Shown: positions 1 through 28,219 of the stretch, one piece after another | Numbering within the stretch: the first letter of the stretch is position 1 | Layout of the letters: each line of letters opens with the position of its first letter | DNA from: an uncultured Desulfovibrionaceae bacterium | GTDB lineage: Bacteria > Bacillota > Dethiobacteria > DTU022 > UBA8154 | Assembly (NCBI GenBank): GCA_964567295.1 | Contig: CAZMLU010000005.1 | Location: 1 to 60,775 of the forward strand | Reading direction: 5' to 3' | Length of the DNA stretch: 60,775 bases | Translations under genes and position numbers: made by a program | The notes under the pieces: model-generated | What the model was told of the DNA's origin: nothing | The model's input: the letters and a program-made list of their open reading frames with translations, nothing else | The model's database searches: none

Positions 1-586
1 GTAATGTCTACGTCAAAAGCCGCAGAGCCAGGGAGCGAGTCATGGTAAGCATAAGACGGTTCATTGAAGACCGACTGAAGCTGAAGGTAAACGAACAGAA
101 AAGCGCAGTGGACAGCCCTATGAAGTGGAAGTTTCTCGGATACAGCTTCTACAATACCCGTGTGGACAATACAGGCTTAGAGTTCATGCCAAGAGCTTTA
201 AACGGCTCAAGGATAAGATTCGGGACATTACTAACCGGAACGCCAGCATGAACTTCGAGACTAGGGTAAGAAGGCTCACTGAGGTTACCCGTGGATGGGT
301 TAATTACTTCATACTGGCAGACATGAAGAACCACCTCAAACAGTTGGATGAATGGGTACGCAGAAGACTTAGGGCATGTATCTGGAAGACGTGGAAACGT
401 ATCCGAACCAGATATGCAAACCTAAAGAAGCTAGGCATCCCGGAAGGTAAAACATGGGAATTTGCAAACACAAGAAAAGGCTACTGGAGGATCTCCAATA
501 GCCCAATTGTGAATCGTGCCATAACTAACGCCCATCTGGAAAAACGTGGGTATACTAGCATGTCAAATTTGTTTTCTAGAGCTTGA
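1..586 (+). pseudogene. ltrA: Group II intron reverse transcriptase/maturase, C-terminal part, frameshifted near 160
   Basis: The frame from position 3 reads NVYVKSRRARERVM...KLKVNEQKS...KFLGYSF (end of RT). The maturase/X domain (GWVNYF...LDEWVRRRLR...W) is in a different frame (ORF 125-586). Removing one GT from CGTGTGG (159-165) joins them. Confidence 0.8.
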
Positions 587-596
587 TTGTCATAAC

Positions 597-674
597 GAAC
601 CGCCGGATACCGAACGTTACGTACGGTGGTGTGAGAGGACGGTCACTCAAATAATGGGTGACCTCCTACTCGAT
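597..674 (+). ncRNA. Group II intron ribozyme domains V and VI
   Basis: CGC catalytic triad in ACCGCC, GAAC loop, DVI hairpin with branch-point A, terminal AT. Confidence 0.88.
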
Positions 675-687
675 CAGATATAATTAA

Positions 688-716
688 TTGACACTTATGA
701 AGGATCGTGGGATAAT
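688..716 (+). promoter_or_regulatory. Candidate sigma-A promoter for the 776 gene
   Basis: TTGACA (688-693), 17 bp, GATAAT (711-716). Confidence 0.45.
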
Positions 717-775
717 ATTTGCGCCGCTTATTAGAGGTGGCAGCGAAAAGCATACCTCCAAAAAGGAGCTAAACC

Positions 776-1000
776 TTGGATCTTTTTATTACCCTTCTTA
801 TTGTATTGTTGCTAATATTTTGGCCTCGCCTGGGGAAAATGCGTTACTATATACTTCTTTTTGTGGGGGTTGCATTTCTTTTTTTTGCCCTCATATTTGC
901 TCCTCTAATACTTCTTACTCCTGTTTTTTATGCGGGGGCTATAATAATTATCTTGTTAATTCTATACAGGGAGATTGTCAATAAAAGGAAAAATGATTGA
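776..1000 (+). CDS. Small hydrophobic membrane protein (74 aa)
   Basis: AAGGAG SD before a TTG start; hydrophobic segments and a basic C-terminus (NKRKND). Confidence 0.65.
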   Translation: MDLFITLLIVLLLIFWPRLGKMRYYILLFVGVAFLFFALIFAPLILLTPVFYAGAIIIILLILYREIVNKRKND

Positions 1001-1069
1001 GAAAGAATCGATCTAGATTGCCATTAACCCAGCTCTTGAAAAGTACCTTTTTTCTCAACAGATATTAGG

Positions 1070-2065
1070 TCACTGAATATTTCTGCTGCTTCCAGATAAA
1101 GAAGTATTAAGGGGAATATCCCTGCCAATTTTTATGGGGATTATATCGTTCAGACGATATAGGTTGGCTTTTTCCAGCCGCCACTGTTCATTAAAAACCA
1201 TGGTTAGTTTATAGACAAAATCAGATTTGTTGCCAAAACGCAGATCCATTAGTTTGACAAATATTTTGCCTTTTTCTTCCCACTGTGCGATGTGGTAAAA
1301 GGAAGTAAATTGCAGGAAAAAACGCCCAGGGACAGTTTGAAGAGCTTTATAGGCCAAGGGAGTCAAGGTTGTTTTATCTAAAAAAAGGATGCTATTTATT
1401 TGCTGTCCGAAGTAATGCATAGTACCCCGGGTTACTTTCATGGGGCTATCGATTAGAAAGTCCCAACTTGCTATTCCTCTTAACGCGGGCATTATTGCCA
1501 GTTTTTCATTGTGCGGCCTTAGCCTATAATGTTTTTTTAAAAAATGTTCTACCTGGAGGCGCATTTTCCAGCGTATTAAAAGATAGATCGCAACTAAGAT
1601 AATAGACAGGACAGCTGCCAGCTGCGGGTTTTGGTAAATGAAAAATATTGGTATAAAAAGCATTAATAATAAAGGGTCCATAAACATAAGCAAGTTGCCT
1701 GCGCGCCTTTTGCTCGATAACGGCCACCAAAGCGCTGCGCCATACGAATTAAAAAAGTCAAGAGTAATGTGAGAAAGTGCTCCTATTACTGCCCAAAGGA
1801 AATAAAGCCAAAAGTATCCGCCAAAATCAATATAAATTATTCCTGCCACAGCGGCGGAGATTAGTAGAAGGCCAACCAGTGAATGAGAAATGCCCCTGTG
1901 ATGACGTATAAACGAAAACTCCCCTCTAAGCATGGTAACAATATCAAAATCAGGTGCCACTGCACCGAAAACTGCTGCACAATATATTGGATTATAAGGG
2001 GAGATGGTTTGTCCTGAAAGTGCTCCAACCCCAACCCCTACTATTGCATGTGTAAAAGGATCCAT
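1070..2065 (-). CDS. Membrane-bound metal-dependent hydrolase (YdjM/YfhP-like)
   Basis: Motifs MDPFTH, APDFD, HHRGISHS, SHITLD; several TM segments. Confidence 0.85.
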   Translation of the reverse strand: MDPFTHAIVGVGVGALSGQTISPYNPIYCAAVFGAVAPDFDIVTMLRGEFSFIRHHRGISHSLVGLLLISAAVAGIIYIDFGGYFWLYFLWAVIGALSHITLDFFNSYGAALWWPLSSKRRAGNLLMFMDPLLLMLFIPIFFIYQNPQLAAVLSIILVAIYLLIRWKMRLQVEHFLKKHYRLRPHNEKLAIMPALRGIASWDFLIDSPMKVTRGTMHYFGQQINSILFLDKTTLTPLAYKALQTVPGRFFLQFTSFYHIAQWEEKGKIFVKLMDLRFGNKSDFVYKLTMVFNEQWRLEKANLYRLNDIIPIKIGRDIPLNTSLSGSSRNIQ

Positions 2066-2286
2066 TCCCTTTTCCTCCAGTATGATATGATCAGAACAAC
2101 ATATTTTAATGATGTCTACTTTCTGATTATAGCATAAACAAATTTAGAAAATCAGGGGTAAAATTTAAAGAAGTTGCAAATAATAGAATACTCCAGATGA
2201 CGGCAAACTACAATTATCTTTTAAAAGTATAGAAAATATGATATACAATATATGGAGAATGAAAGATGCACTGGAGATGAGCACCT

Positions 2287-4182
2287 ATGCCCAAGGACAA
2301 TGGTTGGTTAGATAAGGTGAAAAAGCAATATCCCGGAAAAATAGCTGTAGAAGAAGAAATTTTTGCTAACATTCGCGCTGGGGACAGGATTTTTATTGGA
2401 ACAGGTTGCGGAGAACCACAATACCTGGTCGAGGCCCTTGTCGGGTACGTGGAGTCCAATCCCAAAGCTTTTTTCGATGCCGAGATACTCCACGTGTTTA
2501 CCCTGGGTGTGGCCCCCTATACTGATGAAAAATTTCGCCGCAATTTCCGACATAATTCATTTTTTATCGGAGATAACACTCGAGAGGCTGTAAATAAGGG
2601 TATGGCGGACTATACACCTATTTTCCTTTCTGATGTCCCTACTCTTTTCTCCCGCCGCTTTGTTCCGCTGGATGTTGTCCTTGTGCAAGCTGCTCCTCCG
2701 GATGCACACGGTTATCTCAGTTTGGGAATAAGCGTGGATATTGTTAAAGCAGCAGTGAACAGCGCTAATACAGTGATCGTCCAGATAAATTCCTACATGC
2801 CAAGGGTTCACGGAGATTCCTTTATTCATCTTCAGGAAGTAGATTTTATTATACCGAAAGATGAACCTTTGCTGCAGTATCAAGGAGAAGTTGCAGGTGA
2901 AATTGCCCAAAAAATTGGAGAATATGTTTCCCGTATTGTTGAAGATGGTGACACTATTCAGGTGGGTTATGGTGCCATTCCCAGCGGCGTGATAGGAAAC
3001 CTGTACGGCAAAAAGCACCTTGGAGTTCACACAGAACTGCTCAGTGATAGTATCGTCAAGCTAATTGAAAATGGTATTGTTGATAATAGTAAAAAAAATC
3101 TATTACGAGGAAAAACAGTAGCGGCTTTCTGTATGGGCAGCAGAGATACTTATGCTTTTTTAGATGATAATCCAGCCATTGAATTTAGGACAGTTGACTT
3201 TACCAATAATCCACTGGTTATCGCTCGCAATAAAAATATGGTGGCTATCAATACTGCTCTTGAGATAGATTTGACAGGGCAGACTACCGCTGAATCCAGG
3301 GGACAAAAATTCTATAGTGGTATCGGCGGGCAGGCGGATTTTATGAGAGGCGCCGTTCTTTCCGAAGGAGGGAAAACAATACTTGCTCTTCAATCGACTG
3401 CCCGGGAGGGTTCTATTTCTCGTATAGTTCCTTTCCTCCAGGAGGGAGCAGGGGTTACATTGACCCGCGGCGATCTCCACTACGTGATTACAGAGCATGG
3501 CATTGCCTATTTACATGGCAAGAATATCAGGGAGAGAGCTATGTCTCTCATAGCGATCGCTCATCCAGATTTTAGGCCCTGGCTTATTGAGGAAGCAAAA
3601 AGATTTTCTTTAATTTATAAAGATCAGGCTTATATTCCCGGTAAAAAAGGTGAATATCCCGAAGAACTGGAGACATACAGAACTACAAATAGCGGTATTG
3701 AAATGCTTCTGCGCCCGGTAAAGATAAGTGATGAACCCTTGTTAAAAGATTTTTTTTATTCCCTTTCGGATACGAGCATGTACAAGAGGTTCTTGACAAA
3801 GCGTAGAGATATGCCTCACCACATGTTGCAGGATATGTTCGTAGTAATAGATTATACGCGTGAGATGGTAATTCTGGCCATAAAAGTAATGGAAGAAATT
3901 GAGACTATTATAGGAATTGGGCAGTACGGAATCGACGAAAATAATCATACAGCAGAGGTAGCTCTTGTTGTGGGGGATGAATACCAAAATATGGGCGTTG
4001 GGACGGAACTGCTTTCGTATCTTATTAATTTAGCAAAAAAACAAGGACTTCTAAGTTTTACCGGTGAAGTGCTCCCTGAAAACAAGGCCATCATTCATTT
4101 AATGGAAAAGTTTGGCTTTGAGATAGAGAAGCGTTTTTCGGCAGGGGTGTATATTCTTAAAGTGAATTTGAGAGAAAAGTAA
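2287..4182 (+). CDS. Acetyl-CoA hydrolase/CoA-transferase family protein with C-terminal GNAT domain
   Basis: FIGTGCGEP, GVHTE (catalytic Glu), SGIGGQADF; C-terminal LLRPVKISDE...EVALVVGDEYQNMGVGTELL GNAT motif. Confidence 0.88.
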   Translation: MPKDNGWLDKVKKQYPGKIAVEEEIFANIRAGDRIFIGTGCGEPQYLVEALVGYVESNPKAFFDAEILHVFTLGVAPYTDEKFRRNFRHNSFFIGDNTREAVNKGMADYTPIFLSDVPTLFSRRFVPLDVVLVQAAPPDAHGYLSLGISVDIVKAAVNSANTVIVQINSYMPRVHGDSFIHLQEVDFIIPKDEPLLQYQGEVAGEIAQKIGEYVSRIVEDGDTIQVGYGAIPSGVIGNLYGKKHLGVHTELLSDSIVKLIENGIVDNSKKNLLRGKTVAAFCMGSRDTYAFLDDNPAIEFRTVDFTNNPLVIARNKNMVAINTALEIDLTGQTTAESRGQKFYSGIGGQADFMRGAVLSEGGKTILALQSTAREGSISRIVPFLQEGAGVTLTRGDLHYVITEHGIAYLHGKNIRERAMSLIAIAHPDFRPWLIEEAKRFSLIYKDQAYIPGKKGEYPEELETYRTTNSGIEMLLRPVKISDEPLLKDFFYSLSDTSMYKRFLTKRRDMPHHMLQDMFVVIDYTREMVILAIKVMEEIETIIGIGQYGIDENNHTAEVALVVGDEYQNMGVGTELLSYLINLAKKQGLLSFTGEVLPENKAIIHLMEKFGFEIEKRFSAGVYILKVNLREK

Positions 4183-4289
4183 TAAGCTTTACTACTTGAG
4201 GGAGAAGAGATTGAAACACTAAAAGGTCATCTGGAGCTGACAGAATCGGTGGAGCCGGACTGGAGTCTTATTGACTAATTTCGACCCTA

Positions 4290-4925
4290 TCATGTCAGCT
4301 TTGCAGCCATCTCCCATATTATTAATCCTGGCAGAAGAGCATAATCTTCAGTGGGCAGGTAGTGCTCTGCCGATGCATCATAAAGTATAGTAGCCGAAGG
4401 AGAGAGCTCCTCATCTCCTTCCCATAAGGCAAAAGCAACGGGAACTCGTGGAAAAGGTCGCATAATTACACTTGAATCACCCATGGAGCTGGGGGCGCCA
4501 CCCAGGCTTGCGGCTATATTCTGTAGTTGTTCTGGCTTATGACCGAAGTATTTTAGAAGAGGGTTAATAGCCCTGTTTTGGTACGGTTCAGCATATATTA
4601 AACCTCCCGGAAGCTCCTTGAAAGTAATCCATCTGTTTTGGAGTGGAGTTCCATCAGCATGAGTCAGGTAATGTATAAACATGATTTGCAGATGAATAGA
4701 GATTTCCTTATCTTCCCCTAAGGGCTTTACTTCACCGGTGCTGTGGTTAACAAAGTATTTCCTGTTCAAATAGGGAAGGAGATAACTGTTCATTTCCCTA
4801 TTATAAGTAGTGCCGCTGTTGAGACTGACCAGGCGTGGGTCAGCCTGTGAAAGATCCGAAATTGCTTTTTCCAGTGTTACACCCAGGTTGAACTTTTCTC
4901 TTTGTTTTTTTTCTTTGTCAGGCAC
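4290..4925 (-). CDS. DUF3786 domain protein
   Basis: WITFKELPGG, PFPRVP, LWEGDEE-PSATILYD pattern recalled for DUF3786. Confidence 0.75.
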   Translation of the reverse strand: MPDKEKKQREKFNLGVTLEKAISDLSQADPRLVSLNSGTTYNREMNSYLLPYLNRKYFVNHSTGEVKPLGEDKEISIHLQIMFIHYLTHADGTPLQNRWITFKELPGGLIYAEPYQNRAINPLLKYFGHKPEQLQNIAASLGGAPSSMGDSSVIMRPFPRVPVAFALWEGDEELSPSATILYDASAEHYLPTEDYALLPGLIIWEMAAKLT

Positions 4926-4990
4926 GCTTCCACTTCCTTTCCCCCAAAGATTTCTTTTTGTTTATCTCTTGCTTTATTAATAATACTTGT

Positions 4991-5722
4991 TTATTCTTTT
5001 GCCATTTGGGTGTTATTTCGAATATTGTCCAGAATCTCCTGCGGAGTGTTTCCAGGATACAGATCTATCATCTTCTTGTGTTTAAAATGAGCATAAAGAC
5101 ATTCTCGAAACATTTGTAGACGGTACGTAAAACCCTTGATAAAGCCCAGCTTTTCTTCTTTAGTTACATGAGTTATTCCATTCAGTTCAGGATAATGGAC
5201 AGGTCTTTGAGTCAGCTTTGCAAACCTTGTTAACAAGACTTCCACACCGAAACGGGACCATTTGAGTTCAGGAAGTATCTCCACAAAGTCTCTTCGTAGT
5301 CCCCGTTGACCGTTAAGAACGGAAAAATATTTCTGGGCCAAATTTACACTGTTTTTATTACCTGCTTTAAAAACCCCGATAGTCATGGACGGAGGATTTT
5401 TTTCTTTCAGCGGGGACAGGAGAGTTTTGATGTGCTCATGGTTGAGATGGAGCAGATCGGCATCCAGAAAAATGTAATAAGATGCATAGTACACTTCTTC
5501 CAGGGCTACCTGTAGGGCTGCACCTTTCCCCATGTTTTGGGAAAGCCGAATGAGCTTTACCGGAAAAGCCGCTGCTGTTTCCGCAGTTCCATCAGTAGAT
5601 CCATCATCGACAACAATAGTTTCGTTGATGAGCGGACAGGATAGCACTGTTTCTAAAACTTTTGAAATGCGAGGCGCTTCATTATAAGCAGGGATTATGG
5701 CAACTGTTTCAAGAAGACTCAA
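4991..5722 (-). CDS. Glycosyltransferase family 2
   Basis: IIPAYNE, VVDDGSTD, NMGKGAA, FLDADL. Start placed at TTG 5722 after AAGAGGT (ORF track starts at 5770). Confidence 0.88.
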   Translation of the reverse strand: MSLLETVAIIPAYNEAPRISKVLETVLSCPLINETIVVDDGSTDGTAETAAAFPVKLIRLSQNMGKGAALQVALEEVYYASYYIFLDADLLHLNHEHIKTLLSPLKEKNPPSMTIGVFKAGNKNSVNLAQKYFSVLNGQRGLRRDFVEILPELKWSRFGVEVLLTRFAKLTQRPVHYPELNGITHVTKEEKLGFIKGFTYRLQMFRECLYAHFKHKKMIDLYPGNTPQEILDNIRNNTQMAKE

Positions 5723-5901
5723 AAGTAAACCTCTTTCTAATATATATTTTGCATTTTTCTTCTTCGACAAGTATAGGTTGATTTCCTTTTATAGGCAAAA
5801 AAATAACAGGGAAAGAGCTTGAAAAACTCCTCCCCGCTTTATGAAGGAAACCGCTCCGGCATGAATCTTATATCAGCTTAGTTGTGAAATAACCAACGTT
5901 A

Positions 5902-6357
5902 TTATTCATCTTTAATGGTTATTTCTTTGGGTTTTGCTTCTTCTGCCTTGGGCAACTTAAGACTCAGTATTCCTTCTTTATAGGTAGCTTCTGCATCAGC
6001 AGAGCTAACCGGGCAAGGCAACGTGAACCCACGGCTAAATCTTCCTCTTGCCCTTTCTTTGACATAGTAGTTTTTCTCTTGCACATCTTCTTCTTCAAAC
6101 AATTTACCGCTTATCATGACTTTGTTTTCTGCTATATTGATCTTAATGTCATCTTTTTTTATGCCGGGTAATTCTGCGGTGACTATGAATTCGTTCTCAT
6201 TTTCTTCCAGATCCACCGCAGGCTGCCATCCCAGACTGTTGCCACGATTGTCATCAAATAACCGGAAAGGATTGCTCAAGAAACGATCCATCTCGTCTCT
6301 CAGTCCCATCAGATCATTTACCGGATTTCCCGTACGTCTCCTCATAATGTTTGTCAT
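5902..6357 (-). CDS. Small heat-shock protein Hsp20 (alpha-crystallin domain)
   Basis: PAVDL-E, AELPG, GRFSRGFTLP, ATYKEGILSLKLPK; GGAGGTG SD before ATG 6357. Confidence 0.95.
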   Translation of the reverse strand: MTNIMRRRTGNPVNDLMGLRDEMDRFLSNPFRLFDDNRGNSLGWQPAVDLEENENEFIVTAELPGIKKDDIKINIAENKVMISGKLFEEEDVQEKNYYVKERARGRFSRGFTLPCPVSSADAEATYKEGILSLKLPKAEEAKPKEITIKDE

Positions 6358-18081: not shown

Positions 18082-18114
18082 GAAGAGAGGCGTTCTGCCT
18101 CTCTTCTCATTTTT
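18082..18114 (+). terminator. Rho-independent terminator after csp
   Basis: GAAGAGAGGC-GTTCT-GCCTCTCTTC stem-loop followed by TCATTTTT. Confidence 0.7.
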
Positions 18115-18143
18115 GAGAGATCCAATATATTTAAGAGAAAAGG

Positions 18144-18170: not shown

Positions 18171-18232
18171 AGTAATTGTTACCCCTTTAAGGGAATAGAA
18201 CAACCAAATGTTTGAAGGGAGTGGCTCTTCTA

Positions 18233-18772
18233 ATGAATATCAACGTTCGTGGAAAAAACATGGAGGTATCTTCTGCTCTGCAAGAATACGTGGAAAAGCG
18301 CATGGGAAAGTTAGAAAAATATTTTGATTCGCAGATAGAAGTCCAGGTAACAATGAGCATTATCAAGGGCGATCACATAGTAGAAGCAACAATTTCTATT
18401 GATGGTTTATTATTGCGTGCTGAGGAAGCAAGCCAGGATATATATGCTTCCATTGATTTGGTAGTAGACAAATTGGAACGGCAGATGCATAAATATAAAA
18501 CAAAAATTAACCGTAAACTAAGACAAAGCGGTATCAAGGATTTAACCGAGCAGGTTGTGCAAACACAGCCCACAGAAGAAGAGTCAGAGCCGGTAGTGGT
18601 CAGGACCAAACGGTTTGCCATGAAGCCAATGCCCGTGGAAGAAGCTATTTTACAGATGAATTTACTGGGACACAGTTTTTTTGTTTTTGCCAATGCTGAT
18701 ACCGATGAGATAAATGTCCTTTACAGGCGTAAAGACGGCAATTACGGCCTAATTGAGCCGGAGGACTGGTAA
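18233..18772 (+). CDS. hpf: Ribosome hibernation promoting factor, long form
   Basis: NINVRGKNMEVS-AL-EY, YASIDLVVDKLERQ, KPMPVEEAILQM-LLGH-FFVF. Confidence 0.95.
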   Translation: MNINVRGKNMEVSSALQEYVEKRMGKLEKYFDSQIEVQVTMSIIKGDHIVEATISIDGLLLRAEEASQDIYASIDLVVDKLERQMHKYKTKINRKLRQSGIKDLTEQVVQTQPTEEESEPVVVRTKRFAMKPMPVEEAILQMNLLGHSFFVFANADTDEINVLYRRKDGNYGLIEPEDW

Positions 18773-18841: not shown

Positions 18842-19954
18842 ATGCGCAAAGCCGTAAATGTAGTAATTTTTGAAGGGGGAAATCCGGAAGGCAGAACAGA
18901 AAAAATACTGGCGGATGTGCGCCATGCTGTTCTGTTGGATAACATCAATAAAATGAAAAAAGTGCAGCAGATAGGGTCTATTTATCTGCTCACAAATTAT
19001 TCGGAGTTGGCAGCAGAGGTTTCTTCTATGGGGGTAACGGTATGGGAGAATCAGCGCAGTAGAGAAGACTTTCATTTCGGGAAGGTCTTGCAGGAGCTCA
19101 TAAATAGCGAAAGGCTGGAAAATATCCTCTATGTAGGGGGTGCCAGCATTCCTTTTGTCACCGTGGCAGAATTGGAGGCTATTTGTGAGCAACTACAGGA
19201 AGAAGCAAAAATTGTTTACTCCAATAATGCCCAGTCGGCTGATATTATTGCTTTTACTCCTGCTTCCCTCATCAATAGTATTAAACCTCCGGCCATGGAT
19301 AATATTCTGGCTATTGAGCTGCGAGATAATTCAGGTATAGAGATGAAGCTTTTTCAAAATACACTGGGACTGCTTTTTGACTTGGATACTCCGGCCGACT
19401 TGTTGGTGCTGGCCGGGAGCCCCTTTACCGGTCCTCTTGCCTCACAAAAAATTAAGGCCTTAAAACTGGATCTTTCGCGATTGGAAGGAGCAAAAGAGGT
19501 CCTCAGGGGAGATTATGAGGAAATTGTTTTGTTGGGCAGAGTGGGAGCTCCTTTAATTGCTCATATTAATAAAAATATTAAGGCGCGCTTGCGTATTTTT
19601 TCCGAGGAAAGGGGCATGAAAGCCCTGGGGAGGGAAGAGCGTGGGGAAGTCACCTCCTTAATGGGTTATTTTCTGGAGGAGGTTGGACCTGAGAAGTTTA
19701 TAGATTATATAGAAAAAATTGCGCGGTGTGCCTTCCTGGATACCAGGGTCTTAATGGCGCACTTCAGGATGAATCTCACCCCTGAGGAGCGCTTTCTTTC
19801 TGACCTGGGAATGTGGGAAGAGTTGAGCAATCCACTGATGAGTGATTTTACCAGGGCTGTTATGGGATCAGAAATTCCTGTTCTCTGTGGTGGGCATTCC
19901 TTGGTATTGGGTGCATTATGGGCGCTTGTTGAGGAGATAGGACCTACATATTAG
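18842..19954 (+). CDS. Hypothetical protein with CofC-like/GT-A nucleotidyltransferase N-terminal region
   Basis: LFDLDTPADL resembles the CofC/MobA D-(I/V)-D-T-P-x-D-L motif. The C-terminal half (FSEERGM, LDTRVL, GGHSLV) is unassigned. Confidence 0.5.
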   Translation: MRKAVNVVIFEGGNPEGRTEKILADVRHAVLLDNINKMKKVQQIGSIYLLTNYSELAAEVSSMGVTVWENQRSREDFHFGKVLQELINSERLENILYVGGASIPFVTVAELEAICEQLQEEAKIVYSNNAQSADIIAFTPASLINSIKPPAMDNILAIELRDNSGIEMKLFQNTLGLLFDLDTPADLLVLAGSPFTGPLASQKIKALKLDLSRLEGAKEVLRGDYEEIVLLGRVGAPLIAHINKNIKARLRIFSEERGMKALGREERGEVTSLMGYFLEEVGPEKFIDYIEKIARCAFLDTRVLMAHFRMNLTPEERFLSDLGMWEELSNPLMSDFTRAVMGSEIPVLCGGHSLVLGALWALVEEIGPTY

Positions 19955-20065
19955 GTAGTCATAACGCTGTTTTACCCTGTTGGGAAAAAAATGGGCAACT
20001 TGCGGGAAGGAATGGTTTTCCTTGTTGGCTTATACTTCCCACATAATGTAGAGGGAGTGGGTTTG

Positions 20066-21391
20066 GTGAAGATCTATGAGCTTTCTAATCTGACAGAGGA
20101 CGAATTGCAGGCCTTGATGAGCCGATCGGAGATTGATGTTACTGAGCATGCTTCCCTGGCCTTAGAAGTTATGGAGAGAGTGCGCAGAGAAGGTGATCAG
20201 GCTCTTTTGCACTATACGGAAAAGTTTGATGGGATTCGGCTGGAGCAGTCAGAGATCAAGGTGCCTCCTGAAAAGATAGCTGAGGCCTACTATAACTTGG
20301 ACGAACAGACCAGGGATACGCTGCAGTACGCTGCGGATAACATAAAAAAATTCCATCAGGAACAGCTTCCATTAGAGATGTGGATGAAAGAAGTTGACGA
20401 AGGTATTTTGGCCGGAGAGAAGGTTACACCTATCTCTGATGTTTGCCTCTATGTTCCCCGGGGTAAAGGTAGTTTCCCTTCGGTGATGCTGATGTTAGGG
20501 ATTCCGGCCGCTTTGGCAGGCGTTCCAAATATCATGGTGTGTACTCCTCCCGGGCAGGGCGGCCTGGTTGAAGAAACTACTCTGGCAGCAGCCCATATCG
20601 TTGGTATAAAAGATATTTACAGGATTGGCGGGATGCAGGCCGTGTCAGCCGTAGCTTTTGGAACGGAGACTGTGCCCCGTTGCCGCAAGATAACCGGTCC
20701 CGGCAATGCTTATGTGAACGCTGCTAAAAGATTGCTTTACGGTGTTCTGGATGTAGGTTTGCCGGCAGGACCTAGTGAAGCCATCATCATGGCTGATGAA
20801 AACGCTGACCCTCATACCGCAGCCTTAGATTTGCTTATCGAGGCGGAGCATGGTCCTGACTCAGCGTCATTGTTAGTGACTCACTCCAGGACTCTTGCTC
20901 AAGAAGTTTTTGAGCTGGTTCCCCAGCTTCTTCAAAAATTGCCAGCAGAAAACCGCAGTTTTGTGGATAATGTTCTTAACGGTTATGGAGGTATTATTCT
21001 TACAGATAGCCTGGATGAATCGGTGAGCTTTGTCAACGAATACGCGCCGGAGCATCTGGAAGTATTAGCAGAAGATTCCTTTTCTTTGCTGCCCTGCATC
21101 AAAAATGCGGGGGAGATTTTACTGGGGCCATATACACCTATAACCCTCTGTAATTTTTTATTGGGGCCGAACGCCATTCTACCTACCGGATCTTTTGCTA
21201 AAACTTATTCCGGGGTTTCGGTTCATGATTTTTTAAAACGTTCCTCCTTCGGCCATGCCACCCGAGAGGGTTTCCATAAGGTGAAAGAAAAAGCAGAGTT
21301 TTTTGCCCGGACAGAGGGTTTTCTCGCTCACGCCATGGCAGTAAGAGAAAGGTTAAATAATCCCAAGGGAACAGGAGGTGGTCCGGAATAG
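20066..21391 (+). CDS. hisD: Histidinol dehydrogenase-family protein, divergent active site
   Basis: KITGPGNAYV, AGPSE, APEHL, DFLKRSS, EG-x-AHA. Start GTG 20066 after GAGGGAG (ORF track starts at 19991). True HisD activity is not assured. Confidence 0.8.
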   Translation: MKIYELSNLTEDELQALMSRSEIDVTEHASLALEVMERVRREGDQALLHYTEKFDGIRLEQSEIKVPPEKIAEAYYNLDEQTRDTLQYAADNIKKFHQEQLPLEMWMKEVDEGILAGEKVTPISDVCLYVPRGKGSFPSVMLMLGIPAALAGVPNIMVCTPPGQGGLVEETTLAAAHIVGIKDIYRIGGMQAVSAVAFGTETVPRCRKITGPGNAYVNAAKRLLYGVLDVGLPAGPSEAIIMADENADPHTAALDLLIEAEHGPDSASLLVTHSRTLAQEVFELVPQLLQKLPAENRSFVDNVLNGYGGIILTDSLDESVSFVNEYAPEHLEVLAEDSFSLLPCIKNAGEILLGPYTPITLCNFLLGPNAILPTGSFAKTYSGVSVHDFLKRSSFGHATREGFHKVKEKAEFFARTEGFLAHAMAVRERLNNPKGTGGGPE

Positions 21392-21429
21392 AAGGTGCCG
21401 CACGCACTTTCTTATAACCCGGGCAGGTT

Positions 21430-22062
21430 ATGCAGGTAACAGCCAAGAGGAAAACAGAAGAATCCAGTATTGTAGTGAAGGTGGTCTTTGGGCCTCGGCC
21501 GGCTGAACCCAAAGAAAAGTTGCAGACTACCATGCCTTTTTTAAACCATATGCTGGAGCATGTGATCTGGCGTGGCGAATTTAACCTGGAAGTAAGTGTA
21601 GAACTGGGTGACTTTTATCTCTCCCATGTAGTATGTGAGGATATAGGCAGTACTTTCGGGGTAGCTGTTGCGAAAGTTCTTGAAAACAGGGTGGAAGATG
21701 GTGTGAAGGGATATGGGTATGCATTTGCTACTATTGACGAGGCGCTATGTCGGGCTGTAATTAGCTTTGAAAGCAGGGCATACCTGGATTTAAATCCTGC
21801 TGAGGGGATTGTTGTGCCATCAGAGACAGAAAACACTCTTTCGGAAGACTTGAAGACTTTTTTTGAGGGATTTGTTCAGGGAGCACGCTGCACTTTACAT
21901 CTTGATATTCTTAAGGGAGAAAACGGACATCATATTTGGGAAGCAGCCTTCAGGGCTTTTGGTGAAGCTCTCTTTAATTCTTTTGAGCTTCGAAAGTGGA
22001 GAAAAGGAATCACAGCCGGAGTGGCTGGACCGTTAACTATTGAAGTAGATAGTGAAGGATAA
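21430..22062 (+). CDS. hisB: Imidazoleglycerol-phosphate dehydratase-family protein, divergent
   Basis: RKTEES, FLNHML, EDIG-TFG, IDEAL, NGHHIWEAAF; first HH motif and C-terminal STKG altered. Confidence 0.7.
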   Translation: MQVTAKRKTEESSIVVKVVFGPRPAEPKEKLQTTMPFLNHMLEHVIWRGEFNLEVSVELGDFYLSHVVCEDIGSTFGVAVAKVLENRVEDGVKGYGYAFATIDEALCRAVISFESRAYLDLNPAEGIVVPSETENTLSEDLKTFFEGFVQGARCTLHLDILKGENGHHIWEAAFRAFGEALFNSFELRKWRKGITAGVAGPLTIEVDSEG

Positions 22063-22070
22063 TAACTTAT

Positions 22071-23246
22071 ATGACTCGAAATAAACTAAAAATACCTAAA
22101 ATTATTTTTGACATGGATGGTGTTATTACCGGAGAAGAATGCTACTGGGACACGGCAGCATTGGTGGTCTGGGAAATGCTTCTGGGTGCACACTTCCTGG
22201 GTCTTAAGCCAGTAGCAGGGCTGCCTCCTTTTAAATCCACAGTTAATGCAATGGAAATTGCACAGATACGAAAGATTATTTTTCAGGATGACCGTGTGAT
22301 TAGTTACTTTAAAAAAAGGGCAGTAAACTCCAATTGGGACCTGGCTTATTTTACTTTTGCCTTTCACCTGGTGCAGCTGTTAACAAAAAAAAGTGCTGAG
22401 GATGAGAGAAAGGTTCGTGGGATCTTTGAAAATGCCTTACTGCCTGAGCTCCGGCAGCTTTCTGAACATCTACAGTTAAGGGACCACTACCCTGTAGATT
22501 TTTCGAGGGTGCTTGGTGAGTGGTCAGGGGAAGCCAGAGGGCCACAGGAATTGGCCGAAAAAATACGCTGCCTTCTGCCGGAAAGCTGCAGCACCGAAGC
22601 TCATAATAATATTGCTCTTTTTTCGATACTAAGGAGTAAAGTACGGACAGTCTTCCAGGAATGGTATCTCGGGGAACAGAAATATTGGGATTTTTTTGGA
22701 AAGCAGTCTGCTGTTTCGGGAAAGAAAGGGCTGGTTTATGAGGAAAAACCTATACTTCCCTTGGAAAAGATTCACTCTTCGCTGCAGGAACTTTGCGATC
22801 AAGGATGGGTGTTGGGGATTGCTACAGGCAGGCCTTTTAATGAGCTTTATGCTCCTTTAGAACAGATGAACTTGTGGAGCTATTTTGATGATAATTCTGT
22901 GGTTACCTTTGATGTTGTGGAAAGGTTTGAGAAAACTCTGGGCTCTGAACTGGGTAATGTATCCCTTAGCAAGCCCCATCCTTTTCCGTTTCTGAAAGCT
23001 TACTGGGAGGACCTTTATACAGCCAGAGAGCTTTTGTTATCTTCTATGGCGGTTCCCGAACGGGGAACTTGTTGGGTGGTAGGTGATTCCCTGGCCGATC
23101 TGCTGGGAGCCAAAGAAATGGGTGCTGCTTTTGCAGGAGTGCTTACAGGGCATAGTGGGGTTAATTATCATAAACTTTTTGAGGAGGAAGGTGCAGATGT
23201 GGTCCTTCCAGATATCAGTTATTTCCCTGCTTTTTTACGTGAATAA
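22071..23246 (+). CDS. HAD-superfamily phosphatase with large cap insertion
   Basis: IIFDMDGV (motif I), IATGRP (II), KPHP (III), VGDSLAD (IV). Confidence 0.85.
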   Translation: MTRNKLKIPKIIFDMDGVITGEECYWDTAALVVWEMLLGAHFLGLKPVAGLPPFKSTVNAMEIAQIRKIIFQDDRVISYFKKRAVNSNWDLAYFTFAFHLVQLLTKKSAEDERKVRGIFENALLPELRQLSEHLQLRDHYPVDFSRVLGEWSGEARGPQELAEKIRCLLPESCSTEAHNNIALFSILRSKVRTVFQEWYLGEQKYWDFFGKQSAVSGKKGLVYEEKPILPLEKIHSSLQELCDQGWVLGIATGRPFNELYAPLEQMNLWSYFDDNSVVTFDVVERFEKTLGSELGNVSLSKPHPFPFLKAYWEDLYTARELLLSSMAVPERGTCWVVGDSLADLLGAKEMGAAFAGVLTGHSGVNYHKLFEEEGADVVLPDISYFPAFLRE

Positions 23247-23247
23247 T

Positions 23248-23781
23248 TTACTCTTTTTGTTTCAACTTGCCTAGCGAAACTATGAAAAGGATTGCCCCCA
23301 TGGTTAAAACTACGTAATTGGCTAACTGCGCTTTTTCCAGGCCTCTCTGGAATACAGGTCCGATCAAACTATCTGCATCAAGGATTAAGTAGCCGGGGAG
23401 AATACTGATGATTATTTGAGAAATGGTAAATATGATAAGGGAAAGAATAGCTGGCGCCAGGAAGATTGAAAAACTACCGTATAAATAATAGAGAAATATA
23501 AGGCAAAACCCGATAGCACCAAGTGATACCCAGAAAATATTTTTAATGACAATCTCATCAACATTGACCATCATGGTTGCCAGTTCCGGTGGATAAGGTG
23601 TTGCTTCAGTGGCGATTACCAGTTCTTCAGAGACAACCATCTCTGATAAGGAAAAAGTAAAAATTGAGGCCAGCACTGCAGCAGCGAAGACCACCGATAA
23701 AATAATTTTCAATAAGAGCTCTGCCCTTCCTATTGGGTTTTTCACAAGCCTTGCCACCCTCCTGCGTCTTATTTTATTCAT
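23248..23781 (-). CDS. Hypothetical membrane protein (about 4 TM segments)
   Basis: 177-aa ORF with basic N-terminus and alternating hydrophobic segments; no family recognised. Confidence 0.7.
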   Translation of the reverse strand: MNKIRRRRVARLVKNPIGRAELLLKIILSVVFAAAVLASIFTFSLSEMVVSEELVIATEATPYPPELATMMVNVDEIVIKNIFWVSLGAIGFCLIFLYYLYGSFSIFLAPAILSLIIFTISQIIISILPGYLILDADSLIGPVFQRGLEKAQLANYVVLTMGAILFIVSLGKLKQKE

Positions 23782-23985: not shown

Positions 23986-24014
23986 GTGACATACAAATTT
24001 TTTTATTGTATAAT
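23986..24014 (+). promoter_or_regulatory. Sigma-A promoter of secA
   Basis: GTGACA-17 bp-TATAAT. Confidence 0.6.
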
Positions 24015-24051: not shown

Positions 24052-27036
24052 ATGGGTTTATTGACAAAGATTTTTGGAGATTCTCATGCCAGGGAAGTTA
24101 AGAAGCTCTGGCGTTATGTAGAAGAGGTTAATTCCTACGAGAATAGAATGGCTGATCTCAAAGACGAAGAATTCTCCCGATATACCGCTCGCTTGAAGGA
24201 TAAGCTGACCGAGGAGGGGGAGTCCTTGGACGACATACTGCCGGAGGCTTTTGCGTTGGCCCGGGAAGCAGCCAGGAGGACCCTTGGCCTGAGGCCTTTT
24301 GATGTACAGGTACTGGGTGGGGTAGTCTTACACCAGGGACGTATTGCGGAGATGAAGACCGGTGAAGGTAAGACATTGGTAGCAACCATGCCTGCTTATC
24401 TTAACGCATTAACCGGGCTCGGTGTGCATATTGTCACTGTTAATGACTACCTGGCCAGGCGTGACCGGGACTGGATGGGACCTGTTTTTGAGTTTTTGGG
24501 ACTTACTGTGGGCGTGATCACGCACGATATGAAACCTGAAGACCGTCGTGCAGGGTACCATGCTGATATCACCTACGGTACCAATAACGAGTTTGGTTTT
24601 GACTATCTGCGGGATAATATGGTGCTCTATAAAGAAAAACTGGTGCAAAAAGAGCACCATTTTGCAGTGATAGATGAGGTAGATAGCATCCTCATAGATG
24701 AGGCAAGGACACCGCTTATTATTAGTGGCATGCCTCAAAAAGAAACTGGTGTCTTTGAGCGATGGAAAGAGCCGGTAGAATCAATTATCAAGAAGCAGAA
24801 ACGCCAGGTAAATGATCTTTTGAAGAAGGTTAGGGAAAAAAGTGAAGCCGGCCTCCACGAAGAAGCAGCAGAGTTGCTTTATCTTGCCCGGCTTGGCGCA
24901 CCCAAAAACAGCGAACTCATGGAAATCCTGAAGGAATCGAGTATCGCAAAAAAAGTGGATCAGGCCAAGCACAATCTTTCCAAAACCCAGGAACATATGC
25001 TGCGAGAGCAGCTCTATTTTACCATTGATGAGGCTACAGGTGTGGTTGATATCTCCTCTCAAAGTTATGAAATACTGGCCGAGGAAGAGCCGACTCTGAA
25101 AAAATTTCTCAGCTTTGACCGTGAGGAACAGGAAGAGGAAGCGGACGATTTTTTAGAGGAAGCAGATACAGAAAGCGATTCTGCCAAGGAGTTGCAGGAG
25201 ATAAGGGAAAGAGGAGGCGAGCATGAGTCGATTATCCGCACCATGCTGAAGGCTTATTCTCTCTTTGAAAAAGATGTGGACTATGTGGTGGCAGACGGCG
25301 AAGTGGTTATCGTTGACGAATTCACTGGTCGCCTGATGCACGGACGCCGCTATTCAGAAGGCCTTCACCAGGCCATAGAAGCTAAGGAAGGGGTAACCGT
25401 GAAAGGACGCTCTCAGACTATTGCTTCTATTACTTTCCAGAATTATTTTCGCCGCTACCAGAAGCTCTCCGGCATGACAGGTACTGCTTTAACGGAAGAA
25501 AGCGAATTTCGTAACATATACGGTATGGATGTGGTAGCCGTCCCCACCAATAAACCGTTGCAAAGAACGGAACTTCCCGATGCTATTTATCGTACCGAAC
25601 AGGCAAAATTTAGGGCTGTAGTCGAGGAGATCGAAGAGAGGCACAGCAAGGGACAGCCGGTGCTGGTGGGCACTATCTCTATTGAAAAATCAGAACTGCT
25701 GAGCAAAATGTTGAAGCAGAGAGGGATTCCCCACCATGTGCTCAATGCCAAGAATCACGAGAAGGAAGCGGAGATTATTTCCCAGGCCGGCCAAAAAGGT
25801 GCGGTAACTATCTCCACCAACATGGCAGGACGTGGTACAGATATCATTCTGGGCGGAAACCCGGAGCCCGAGTTAAGAAAGATCTTTGAGGATGAAGAGC
25901 TGGCTGAGGATCAAAAAGGGATCAAGATACAGGAAGTTCGGCAGCGCTGGCAGGAGCGCCATGACGAAGTAGTGGATCTTGGAGGCCTGCATATCCTGGG
26001 GACGGAAAGACATGAGTCGCGCCGTATCGATAACCAGCTAAGAGGACGTGCTGGTCGCCAGGGGGATCCCGGTTCCTCCCAGTTTTTTATTTCCCTGGAA
26101 GACGATCTGATGCGTATTTTCGGTTCCGATAGCGTTAGCACTATTATGGAAAAAATGGGTATGGAGGAAGATGCTCCCCTGGAGCATTCTATGGTTTCAA
26201 AGGTCATTCAAAATGCCCAGAAGAAAGTGGAAGGGCGTTATTTTGAGATGCGTAAGCATGTTCTGGAATACGATGATGTTATTAATAACCAGAGAGATGT
26301 TATCTACAGTCAGCGCCGTCAGGTGTTGGAGGGAGAAAACCTGCGCGAGCGTGTTTTGGGTATGATAAGCGATCTTATCGAGAAAGAAGTGCTTTTTCAT
26401 GCCCATGATGGTTTGGAGGACGAAGAGTGGAATTTGGCAGGATTGTTGCAGCACGGGGAGTCAGTTTTTTTGCCTCCCGGTCGGCTCACCAAAGATGAGT
26501 TGCGCGATCTTTCCCGTGAGGAGATTAAGGAAGCGCTTCAACAGGTTGCTTATCAGTACTATGAAGAGCGAGAGAAGGAACTGGGTTCGGAAATCATGCG
26601 CGAATTGGAGCGGGTAGTTTTGCTGCGCACAGTGGACCGGAAGTGGATGGAGCAGATTGATAACATGCATGAATTGCGACAGGGGGTAGGCCTCAGGGCA
26701 ATAGGGCAGCAGGATCCTTTACAGGCTTACCGCAAAGAAGCCTATGAAATGTTTCAGGATATGATTCATTCCATCCAGGAAGAAGTGGTAAGGCTCATTT
26801 TCCGCGTGCAAGTGACGGATAAACCTCAGCGAGAGCAGGTGGCTGTACCTCAACAGGCTGGCCGAGAACAGGTGGCAGCAGGAGCTGCCGTTGGAACAGG
26901 CACTACCTCAGAGGCTTCTTCCTCAGGCAGGAAGAAGCAGCAGCCTGTAAGAGTGGAAAAAAAAGTGGGAAGAAATGAGCCATGTCCCTGCGGAAGCGGG
27001 AAAAAACATAAAAAATGTTGTGGAATAACTCAATAG
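24052..27036 (+). CDS. secA: Protein translocase ATPase SecA (994 aa, enlarged PPXD)
   Basis: [73 protein letters not shown]. Confidence 0.98.
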
Positions 27037-27069: not shown

Positions 27070-28219
27070 ATGATTACTGAGTTATGGGAGCAATTAATTG
27101 AGCGCAAGAAACGTTTAGAAGAATGGGGGAGCTCTCTTTGACCTTCTTCGCAAGAAGAACAGAATGGCTGTTTTAGAAAAGGAAGCCAGCGATCCTAATT
27201 TTTGGGATAGCCCCGAAGAAGCGCAGCGTTTAATGCAGGAGTTAGGCCAATTAAAAGAGAAGCTGGGCGAATATGAGCAACTTGCAGAGCAACTTGAAGA
27301 GTTGGAAGCTTTGTTGCAGCTCGCTCAGGAGGAATCCCATGATAATGATTCTCAGGAATTGTTAGAAGAAGCGCGTATATTAAATAATAAGATAGAACGT
27401 TTGCTGGAAAAGAAAGAACGCTCTATGTTGTTTCAGGGTAGCTACGATAAGAAAAACGCCATTGTCTCTATCCATCCTGGAGCCGGTGGGTTAGAAGCCC
27501 AGGATTGGGCAGAAATGCTGTTACGAATGTATACGCGCTGGGGAGAGAAAAGAGGATATGAGGTGGAGATCTTGGATCTCTTACCCGGGGACGAAGCTGG
27601 TATCAAGAGCGCAACACTTACGTTTAAGGGGGAAAAGGCCTACGGCTACCTCCAGTCTGAAAGAGGAGTGCACAGGCTGGTACGAATATCTCCCTTCGAC
27701 ACTGGTGGCAGAAGGCATACTTCTTTCGCTTCTGTAGATGTCCTTCCGGAAGCTGAAGTGGGGATAGATGTTGCGATTGATCCTGATGAATTAAGGATTG
27801 ATACTTTCCGTGCTCGAGGTGCCGGGGGGCAGCATGTTAATACTACAGATTCTGCTGTGAGGATAACTCATCTTCCTACGGGAATAGTGGCCCAATGCCA
27901 AAATGAACGCTCACAGCATAGCAACAAAGAAAGGGCTATGCATATTCTTGTGGCCAGGATGGCAGATATCTCCAGGCAAAAGCATCAAGAAGAGTTAAAC
28001 GCTCTGCGGGGAGAACAAAAGGAGATAGCTTGGGGGAGCCAGATAAGATCCTATACCTTTCATCCTTACAGCCTGGTTAAAGACCATCGCACAGGAGTAG
28101 AAGTGGGAAATATTATTAGTGTAATGGATGGAGAGATAGATCTCTTCCTGGAGGCTTTCCTGCGTTATAATGCCAATCTGCAGACAGGTACCACCACTAA
28201 AGGAGATAAGGAAGACTAG
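27070..28219 (+). CDS. prfB: Peptide chain release factor 2, translated via programmed +1 frameshift (27070-27138 joined to 27140-28219)
   Basis: 23-codon first ORF from ATG 27070 ends CTT TGA C. The +1 frame continues DLLRKKNRMAVLE into ISPFD and GAGGQHVN. Confidence 0.95.
27125..27142 (+). promoter_or_regulatory. prfB +1 ribosomal frameshift site
   Basis: GGGGGAG internal SD-like sequence followed by CTCT CTT TGA C. Confidence 0.9.

Follow-up and report, generated by a model that had tools for sequence, protein, structure and literature searches.

A divergent hisD-hisB-phosphatase module between hpf and secA, with a candidate histidinol-phosphate phosphatase of the 1QYI family

The stretch of contig CAZMLU010000005.1 analysed here (60,775 nucleotides, referred to as the window) carries four genes between hpf and secA, at positions 18,842 to 23,246. 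They encode a two-domain conserved hypothetical protein (ORF1), a variant of histidinol dehydrogenase (variant HisD), a variant of imidazoleglycerol-phosphate dehydratase (variant IGPD, the hisB-type gene) and a phosphatase of the HAD superfamily. The last three genes probably form a divergent hisD-hisB-phosphatase module for late histidine biosynthesis, located beside a separate unit of hpf and ORF1, and the HAD protein is a candidate histidinol-phosphate phosphatase. Family membership, retained catalytic residues, a conserved variant signature and gene neighbourhoods are all directly observed, and from them we infer the substrates. Of the two units, hpf and ORF1 are long-standing neighbours in this and related lineages. 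The trio of hisD, hisB and HAD genes would have been inserted between ORF1 and secA in this Dethiobacteria-like lineage, and it is found at other sites in many Clostridia. In the proposed route, the variant IGPD would dehydrate imidazoleglycerol phosphate to imidazole-acetol phosphate, and an aminotransferase (HisC) encoded elsewhere would convert the latter to histidinol phosphate. The HAD protein would then remove the phosphate to give histidinol, which the variant HisD would oxidize to histidine with nicotinamide adenine dinucleotide (NAD) as the oxidant.

The variant HisD (20,066 to 21,391, forward strand) is a 441-residue protein if translation begins at the GTG codon at 20,066. The open reading frame (ORF) is listed from an ATG at 19,991, but a ribosome-binding site (GAGGGAG, 20,051 to 20,057) and the homologues favour the GTG, which is preferred because the upstream start adds 25 residues absent from every homologue. 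The protein belongs to the HisD family over its full length, with 487 bits to PF00815 (cutoff 27) and 460 bits to the TIGR00069 equivalog-domain model (cutoff 243.8). Matches to solved HisD structures range from 260 to 288 bits, the latter to Brucella HisD (4g07). In common with canonical HisD from Escherichia coli (1K75/1KAE), Brucella suis (4G07) and Medicago (5VLD), it retains the catalytic Glu326-His327 pair, which lies in APEHLE opposite AAEHLE of the Brucella enzyme and is invariant in two family alignments, and the zinc ligands His262 and His419, the latter from the C-terminal histidine. Like hisD, the variant gene of relatives is found in his operons, at the last-but-one position.

The zinc site of canonical HisD is composed of Gln259, His262, Asp360 and His419' (PMC11382572), and two of these four ligands are altered in the variant. 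In E. coli numbering, the axial Gln259 is replaced by Glu and the equatorial Asp360 by Asn, and Tyr361 and His367 are replaced by Phe (Phe or Tyr in the family) and Ala, respectively. The QAEH motif thus becomes EAEH, GDY..G.NH becomes CNF..G.NA, and the loop GG[ST]A.[LY] becomes [RHG]GKG[SA]F. The resulting signature, Glu / Asn-[Phe/Tyr]-Ala / Lys-Gly-[Ser/Ala]-Phe, is present in all 165 variant HisD sequences sampled. We infer that the Glu/Asn pair is a compensated swap, which would preserve a zinc site made up of one carboxylate, one amide and two histidines. The substrate loop reads GKGSF, compared with GRYAH in the paralogue HpsN and GSAPL in HisD. Assignment as an HpsN-type sulfopropanediol dehydrogenase was considered and rejected on the basis of the lower match to HpsN (211 bits, compared with 288 to HisD), the lack of GRYAH (the His126 motif) and the his-operon context of relatives.

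The variant IGPD (21,430 to 22,062, forward strand, 210 residues) is a stand-alone IGPD domain that matches PF00475 at 118.4 bits (cutoff 27), over profile positions 1 to 144. It falls below the cutoffs of all 13 NCBIfam HisB equivalogs matched, the highest score being 117.7 bits where 283 is required. The altered ligand residues account for the failure of curated HisB models to recognize these proteins. Canonical IGPDs, such as Arabidopsis IGPD2 (4MU0), Medicago HISN5 and the Cryptococcus enzyme (1RHY), share with the variant a full-length PF00475 domain, Asp78, Arg121, the second motif GxNGHHxxEAxF and adjacency to hisD. The manganese ligands of IGPD are His47, His73, His74, Glu77, His145, His169, His170 and Glu173, of which His74 binds Mn2, and Arg99 and Arg121 are the phosphate-binding arginines (PMC10978614). 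When the window protein is aligned with 1rhy and 2f1d, DHHT.ED is replaced by SHVVCED, and seven of the eight manganese ligands remain. The exception is His74, replaced by Val in the window protein and by Val, Leu or Ile in the family as a whole; Arg99 is replaced by Gly, Lys177 by Arg and Gln51 by His (mostly His in the family), while Arg121 is kept. The replacements of His74 and Lys177 are conserved across the family. Neither the manganese-ligand set nor the set formed by Lys177 and the phosphate-binding Arg99 and Arg121 is therefore intact. An E. coli-type bifunctional HisB was rejected as a description of this locus: the IGPD domain stands alone, and the HAD protein comes from a different family.

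Judged by their sequences, both proteins are variants of known enzymes, and the observation in the sequence-only reading that normally conserved active-site residues are substituted in both is borne out, with metal or substrate residues changed in each. Many of their relatives are named histidinol dehydrogenase or IGPD in databases, and several are still labelled hypothetical. A literature search for Dethiobacter or Monoglobus together with histidine turned up nothing useful.

The HAD protein (22,071 to 23,246, forward strand, 391 residues) is a large-cap, HAD-IA-type phosphatase. Its four catalytic motifs, FDMDGV (I), TGRP (II), KPHP (III) and GDxxxD (IV, GDSLAD here), are invariant in 24 homologues, as expected of a HAD phosphatase, and so are YW, NSNWD and FQEW in the large cap between motifs I and II. 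Pfam matches are weak but above cutoff (PF13419, PF00702 and PF13242), and the best NCBIfam matches, to phosphoglycolate, hexitol and PpaX phosphatases, are all far under cutoff. A profile built from the 24 members matches one solved structure in the PDB, 1QYI (E 2.9e-82), a 384-residue structural-genomics hypothetical protein from Staphylococcus aureus. The window protein aligns with 1qyi_A at 169 bits over its full length, including the cap, and the two share motifs I to IV as well as NSNWD and QEWYLG in the cap. No relevant paper was found in a literature search for PDB code 1QYI, and this family goes unmentioned in those passages of the GapMind 2026 preprint that contain histidinol, HAD or haloacid, or Staphylococcus terms. 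Staphylococcal and Mammaliicoccus genomes label its members simply as "HAD family hydrolase".

Several families are known to dephosphorylate histidinol phosphate, and the HAD protein differs from those compared: the N-terminal HAD-IIIA domain of E. coli HisB, the PHP-type HisK/HisJ, the IMPase-type HisN and the HAD protein PA0335 of Pseudomonas aeruginosa. It is type-IA-like, and a large cap separates its motifs I and II. Searches against Pfam and NCBIfam detected no PHP or IMPase domain in it, and the known histidinol-phosphatase families, including the models TIGR01656 and TIGR01261, do not accommodate it either; TIGR01656 is matched by 10 of the 24 members, at E values of at least 4e-4. It would probably represent a new family for a known reaction.

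The distribution of these genes was assessed with an alignment scan for variant HisD across 185,579 species genomes (one genome per species), and with 165 loci annotated by our own ORF and phmmer pipeline, in which neighbourhoods reach at most 10 kb around the match. A variant HisD relative was identified in at least 537 species genomes (537 of the 600 pattern matches listed), mostly Clostridia among those examined, and a metagenome scan produced 501 more. The variant HisD, variant IGPD and HAD genes are contiguous in 88 of the 165 loci, with the HAD gene directly 3' of the variant hisB. Another 16 loci have the first two genes without the third, which is absent in nine and lost at a contig end in seven. 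The 165 loci come from Dethiobacteria-like metagenome-assembled genomes (MAGs), gut and rumen Clostridia (labelled Oscillospiraceae, Monoglobus or Ructibacterium), Petroclostridium (L007) and Bacilli; in gut clades, the trio follows the hrcA-grpE-dnaK-dnaJ operon. The trio is a conserved module, with flanks that vary by lineage and a constant interior.

Some neighbours of the trio recur. In 38 loci, a gene encoding only a fumarate-hydratase beta subunit (PF05683, approximately 180 residues) is located directly 3' of the HAD gene, often overlapping it (L018, 8572 to 9102; L070, 12943 to 13491; L007, 14494 to 15057; and 35 others). No fumarate-hydratase alpha subunit is encoded near these genes, and the window lacks the PF05683 gene. 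Genes for a PurH-type transformylase of 5-aminoimidazole-4-carboxamide ribonucleotide (AICAR) or for a PurO-like inosine-monophosphate cyclohydrolase occur upstream of the variant hisD in approximately seven gut-Clostridia loci each (for example, L043, 1464 to 2648, and L037, 6668 to 7576). AICAR is a by-product of the HisH/HisF step.

A connection to histidine comes from loci in which the variant genes lie within his operons. Complete operons of the order hisZ-hisG-hisH-hisA-hisF-hisIE followed by variant hisD and variant hisB are found in Thermicanus aegyptius (L006), a Clostridia MAG (L085), a Peptococcaceae MAG (L087) and L112, and no other hisD or hisB was found within 10 kb of these four operons. 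Their variant HisD proteins are 55-60% identical to that of the window, the L006 variant IGPD is 57% identical, and the same signature is present. In the usual Firmicutes his operon, hisD and hisB are located between hisG and hisH. Since this slot is empty in the four operons and the variant pair is appended at the operon end, the arrangement reads as replacement of canonical hisD-hisB by the variants. Relatives of variant HisD at 50-60% identity are encoded with his genes in L006, L085, L087, L112, L125, L150, L161 and L163; the window itself has no such genes. T-boxes are present by the L085 (5107 to 5328, reverse strand) and L087 (4573 to 4816, reverse strand) operons, on the opposite strand and before genes for an AsnC-type regulator and a class I/II aminotransferase. 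Of these leaders, only that of L085 was aligned, and it shows a GCC (Ala) specifier; the arrangement resembles alaR-alaT. With this specifier and these genes after it, the L085 T-box was rejected as a regulator of the his operon.

In a second branch, the variant hisD follows genes for a class I/II, HisC-like aminotransferase and a HAD_2-IGPD fusion, with hisZ next in L125 and L131; the fusion and the aminotransferase also adjoin the variant hisD in L134 and L139. The fusions are 642-668 residues long (L125, 1263 to 3191; L139, 1710 to 3692; also L131 and L134) and consist, from the N terminus, of an ordinary HAD_2 domain, an unassigned stretch of approximately 240 residues and an IGPD domain, an arrangement that recalls E. 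coli HisB but is much longer.

The HAD family has its own independent link to his operons. In L150 and L161, the slot between hisG and hisH is occupied by a protein of 777-815 residues, the N-terminal 385 residues of which are a HAD homologue (33-34% identity, all invariant residues present), and the variant hisD ends the operon. This protein (L150, 4379 to 6826; L161, 4517 to 6850) also carries an APH-like domain, a small-molecule kinase fold with the motif HGDAHFGN. In L163 (5721 to 6953), a 60% identical APH-like domain stands alone in the same slot. An IGPD domain was not detectable within 10 kb of the his operons of L150, L161 and L163. Two independent kinds of gene neighbourhood thus link the HAD family to histidine synthesis, namely adjacency to variant hisD-hisB in Clostridia and this insertion inside his operons elsewhere. 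In E. coli HisB, the phosphatase is likewise tied to the dehydratase, and the HAD gene of the window similarly adjoins the variant IGPD gene, its homologue being part of a fusion in L150 and L161.

The simpler of the two options raised in the sequence-only reading, a divergent late-histidine module in which the HAD protein is the histidinol-phosphate phosphatase, is therefore the one favoured here, on account of the four full operons and the HAD homologue in the L150 and L161 operons. The option given more prominence, a four-gene mini-pathway acting on something other than a histidine intermediate and including the CofC-like gene (ORF1), does not survive comparison of the loci. ORF1 accompanies the trio in only 14 of the 88 loci, all of them Dethiobacteria-like with the hpf-secA setting, and 74 trio loci lack it. 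Linkage of the CofC-like gene to the his paralogues across genomes, which had been named beforehand as a test of that proposal, is not seen in those 74 loci.

ORF1 instead keeps company with hpf. It adjoins hpf in L001-L005, L008-L016, L090/91, L119, L121, L122, L129 and L135, and this linkage spans homologues from 85% down to 31% identity. L004 and L005, from a lineage with 51% identity, have the order hpf-ORF1-secA-prfB without his genes. In L001 (Candidatus Contubernalis), hpf-ORF1 is followed by unrelated genes and then secA, again without his genes, and SecA domains were found in the syntenic genes of L001-L005. L090, in which ORF1 is 31% identical, has comFC-hpf-ORF1 and neither his genes nor secA. 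The sole examined context of ORF1 without hpf is L174, a short contig. ORF1 is thus a resident of the hpf neighbourhood, outside the his module; because it keeps hpf where his genes are absent, and because the trio occurs without it, the adjacency of ORF1 and the his-type genes reflects an insertion site and not a common pathway. In L176 (ORF1 35% identical), a PfkB gene separates hpf from ORF1 in the order hpf-PfkB-ORF1-Acetyltransf_6-GT4-PIG-L-thioredoxin, a gene set that resembles those for the synthesis of glycosides or low-molecular-weight thiols.

ORF1 itself (18,842 to 19,954, forward strand, 370 residues) comprises a CofC/FbiD-like nucleotidyltransferase fold (residues approximately 1-195) and an alpha/beta domain (approximately 195-370). 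In a predicted structure (model confidence, pLDDT, 87.7), the N-terminal half resembles Rv2983 of Mycobacterium tuberculosis (6bwg; Foldseek E 1.4e-8, TMt 0.71), and TMt values of 0.71-0.72 to 6bwg and 6bwh are consistent with a MobA-like nucleotidyltransferase fold. The fold of the first approximately 200 residues is therefore common to ORF1 and the CofC/FbiD phospho-acid guanylyltransferases (Rv2983, 6BWG; Methanosarcina mazei, 2I5E), but ORF1 is only 15% identical to them, has an additional C-terminal domain of approximately 175 residues without a PDB match, and is partnered with hpf. Its match to the CofC model TIGR03552 is far under cutoff (20.9 bits, E 2e-4, cutoff 105). Neither ORF1 nor 38 distant homologues match Pfam, and an ORF1 profile found only a weak CofC match in the PDB (6bwg, E 0.092). 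For the C-terminal domain, modelled separately (pLDDT 85), the best PDB fold match has E 0.02 and a TM score of 0.39. The family is sizeable, with 691 matches in a word-indexed search and 523 representative clusters. The listed neighbours of ORF1 in L001-L005, L090 and L176 are hpf, comFC, secA, PfkB, GT4 and PIG-L genes; no F420 genes were seen among them, and the window was not searched specifically for cof genes.

Several observations weigh against the assignment of the trio to histidine synthesis. Upper his genes are found within 10 kb of none of the trios, and pairs of variant hisD and hisB have contexts unrelated to histidine in L074 and in L089 (LysR and a haem-oxygenase-like gene). A gathering search with Rfam over the whole window and seven related loci found no His T-box or other element upstream of the variant hisD. 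Two of the four zinc ligands of the variant HisD are replaced, and an Asp to Ala change at the equivalent zinc-ligand position abolishes the activity of the paralogue HpsN. The variant IGPD is without one manganese ligand and one of the two phosphate-binding arginines, a loss that is not explained by a role in the standard route. No assayed members of the three families were found in the literature. Lastly, in Staphylococcus simiae (L173, 8001 to 12360), the HAD homologue faces serA and a class-V aminotransferase gene in convergent orientation. More generally, the staphylococcal gene is not beside his genes, whereas the HAD genes of the window and of the 88 loci follow variant hisD-hisB.

These points can be accommodated in other ways. 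It may be that histidine is still the product but that the late route is re-ordered and partly phosphate-free: the HAD protein would first dephosphorylate imidazoleglycerol phosphate or imidazole-acetol phosphate, the variant IGPD and/or a general aminotransferase would take the unphosphorylated intermediates, and the variant HisD would finish the route. The loss of Arg99 and the change of Lys177 to Arg throughout the variant IGPD family would suit such a scheme, as would the close packing of the HAD and variant IGPD genes (a gap of 8 bp here, overlaps in many loci) and the fact that hisC never adjoins the trio; the steps of the three enzymes would also follow one another directly, in keeping with the close linkage of their genes. 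However, Arg121 and most of the variant IGPD active site are kept, the full operons of L006, L085, L087 and L112 have no adjacent HAD gene, and a normal hisC adjoins the variant hisD in L125, L131, L134 and L139. The scheme also leaves the substitutions in variant HisD unexplained and has no biochemical precedent, and we regard it as quite unlikely. Alternatively, the trio could be a paralogous set, consisting of a dehydratase, a phosphatase and a four-electron alcohol dehydrogenase, for a phosphorylated polyol or amino alcohol unrelated to histidine. The changes at metal-ligand and substrate-site positions in both variant enzymes would suit this reading, and the loop lysine of variant HisD (GKGSF) stands where the sulfonate-specific HpsN has Arg (GRYAH). 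The lack of upper his genes within 10 kb, the fumarase beta-subunit-like gene after the HAD gene in 38 loci and the L074 cluster point in the same direction. That cluster (100 to 5949, in a MAG) encodes a sugar-binding periplasmic protein, an IGPD-like protein, the variant HisD, the variant IGPD, a short-chain dehydrogenase/reductase and a zinc-dependent alcohol dehydrogenase; its additional IGPD-like protein, a third and more divergent one, has the motifs SHTIAED and HHTWESSFM. A different substrate is nevertheless quite improbable, given that proteins with 55-60% identity and the same signature end four his operons without any other hisD or hisB, that the variant HisD clears the HisD equivalog-domain cutoff by a wide margin and matches Brucella HisD (288 bits) better than HpsN (211 bits), and that the HAD homologue is found inside his operons.

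Another possibility is that the variant HisD and variant IGPD make histidine while the HAD protein does something else in the same operon, for instance dephosphorylating phosphoserine or, more generally, amino-alcohol or sugar phosphates. The S. simiae arrangement with serA hints that a phosphoserine-phosphatase role is possible, and the NCBIfam matches to phosphoglycolate, hexitol and PpaX phosphatases, although far under cutoff, are compatible with such a role. Phosphoserine phosphatase is also described as a frequent gap in passages of the GapMind 2026 preprint, in which families are said to switch between histidinol-phosphate and phosphoserine roles. The position of the HAD gene directly after variant hisB in 88 loci and the independent occurrence of a homologue in the hisG-hisH slot of L150 and L161 argue otherwise, the staphylococcal arrangement is convergent and not an operon, and a separate role for the HAD protein appears unlikely. 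A composite picture is similarly improbable: a late-histidine route with non-textbook chemistry, in which dephosphorylation precedes dehydration or transamination and the variant IGPD acts without its lost phosphate contact, or in which both metalloenzymes are retuned to another metal or a modified imidazole; the HAD protein would found a new amino-alcohol-phosphate phosphatase family and, separately, ORF1 would be an enzymatic partner of the hibernation factor. The late-histidine module with the HAD protein as histidinol-phosphate phosphatase thus remains the favoured reading.

Upstream of ORF1 lies hpf (18,212 to 18,772, forward strand), encoding a long-form ribosome hibernation promoting factor (PF02482 and PF16321; TIGR00741 100.8 bits, cutoff 40.9). 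The gap between hpf and ORF1 is 69 bp, and those that follow are 111 bp (ORF1 to variant hisD), 38 bp (variant hisD to variant hisB) and 8 bp (variant hisB to HAD), in agreement with the four tightly packed, co-oriented genes noted from the sequence. A terminator-like hairpin (18,082 to 18,106) and a promoter-like site (18,104 to 18,131) are located upstream of hpf. Since no convincing forward-strand terminator was found between the hpf upstream region and 23,246, hpf, ORF1, variant hisD, variant hisB and the HAD gene may be carried on one predicted transcript. The GC content across the four-gene block is unremarkable. By the names that homologues of ORF1 and the variant IGPD carry, the contig belongs with Dethiobacteria-like Bacillota. 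As had been noted earlier, the window is without other his genes: no HisZ, HisG, HisH, HisA, HisF, HisIE or HisC homologue was found with phmmer, or with Pfam on 10 mid-size ORFs. No tRNA genes and no Rfam elements were found in the window.

Downstream, secA (24,052 to 27,036 in the ORF list, forward strand) forms the border of the junction and is preceded by a promoter-like site (23,986 to 24,014); prfB is next, at 27,164. The proposed interruption of a conserved hpf-secA junction is real, but only the last three genes of the block are inserted, ORF1 being resident. Between the HAD gene and secA, and outside the module, a small predicted membrane protein of 177 residues is encoded on the reverse strand (23,248 to 23,781), convergent with the HAD gene, the two stop codons being 1 bp apart. 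It has no match in Pfam or NCBIfam, and it keeps the same position in L008, L013, L014, L016 and L123.

The locus does not represent a novel type of system; it is a widespread and well-defined variant module, with ORF1 as a separate lead linked to hpf, and the inference of a shared four-gene pathway from operon structure was appealing but wrong. The active-site signatures of HisD and IGPD that annotation and inhibitor design treat as invariant have exceptions, as variants are fixed in the sampled members of families that extend to hundreds of species. In passages of the GapMind 2026 preprint, histidinol-phosphate phosphatase is given as the commonest unexplained gap in prototrophs, affecting 20% of genomes. 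The 1QYI-family HAD protein, for which a crystal structure has been solved and no function assigned, would be a testable candidate for the missing phosphatase in many Clostridia, and possibly in staphylococci.

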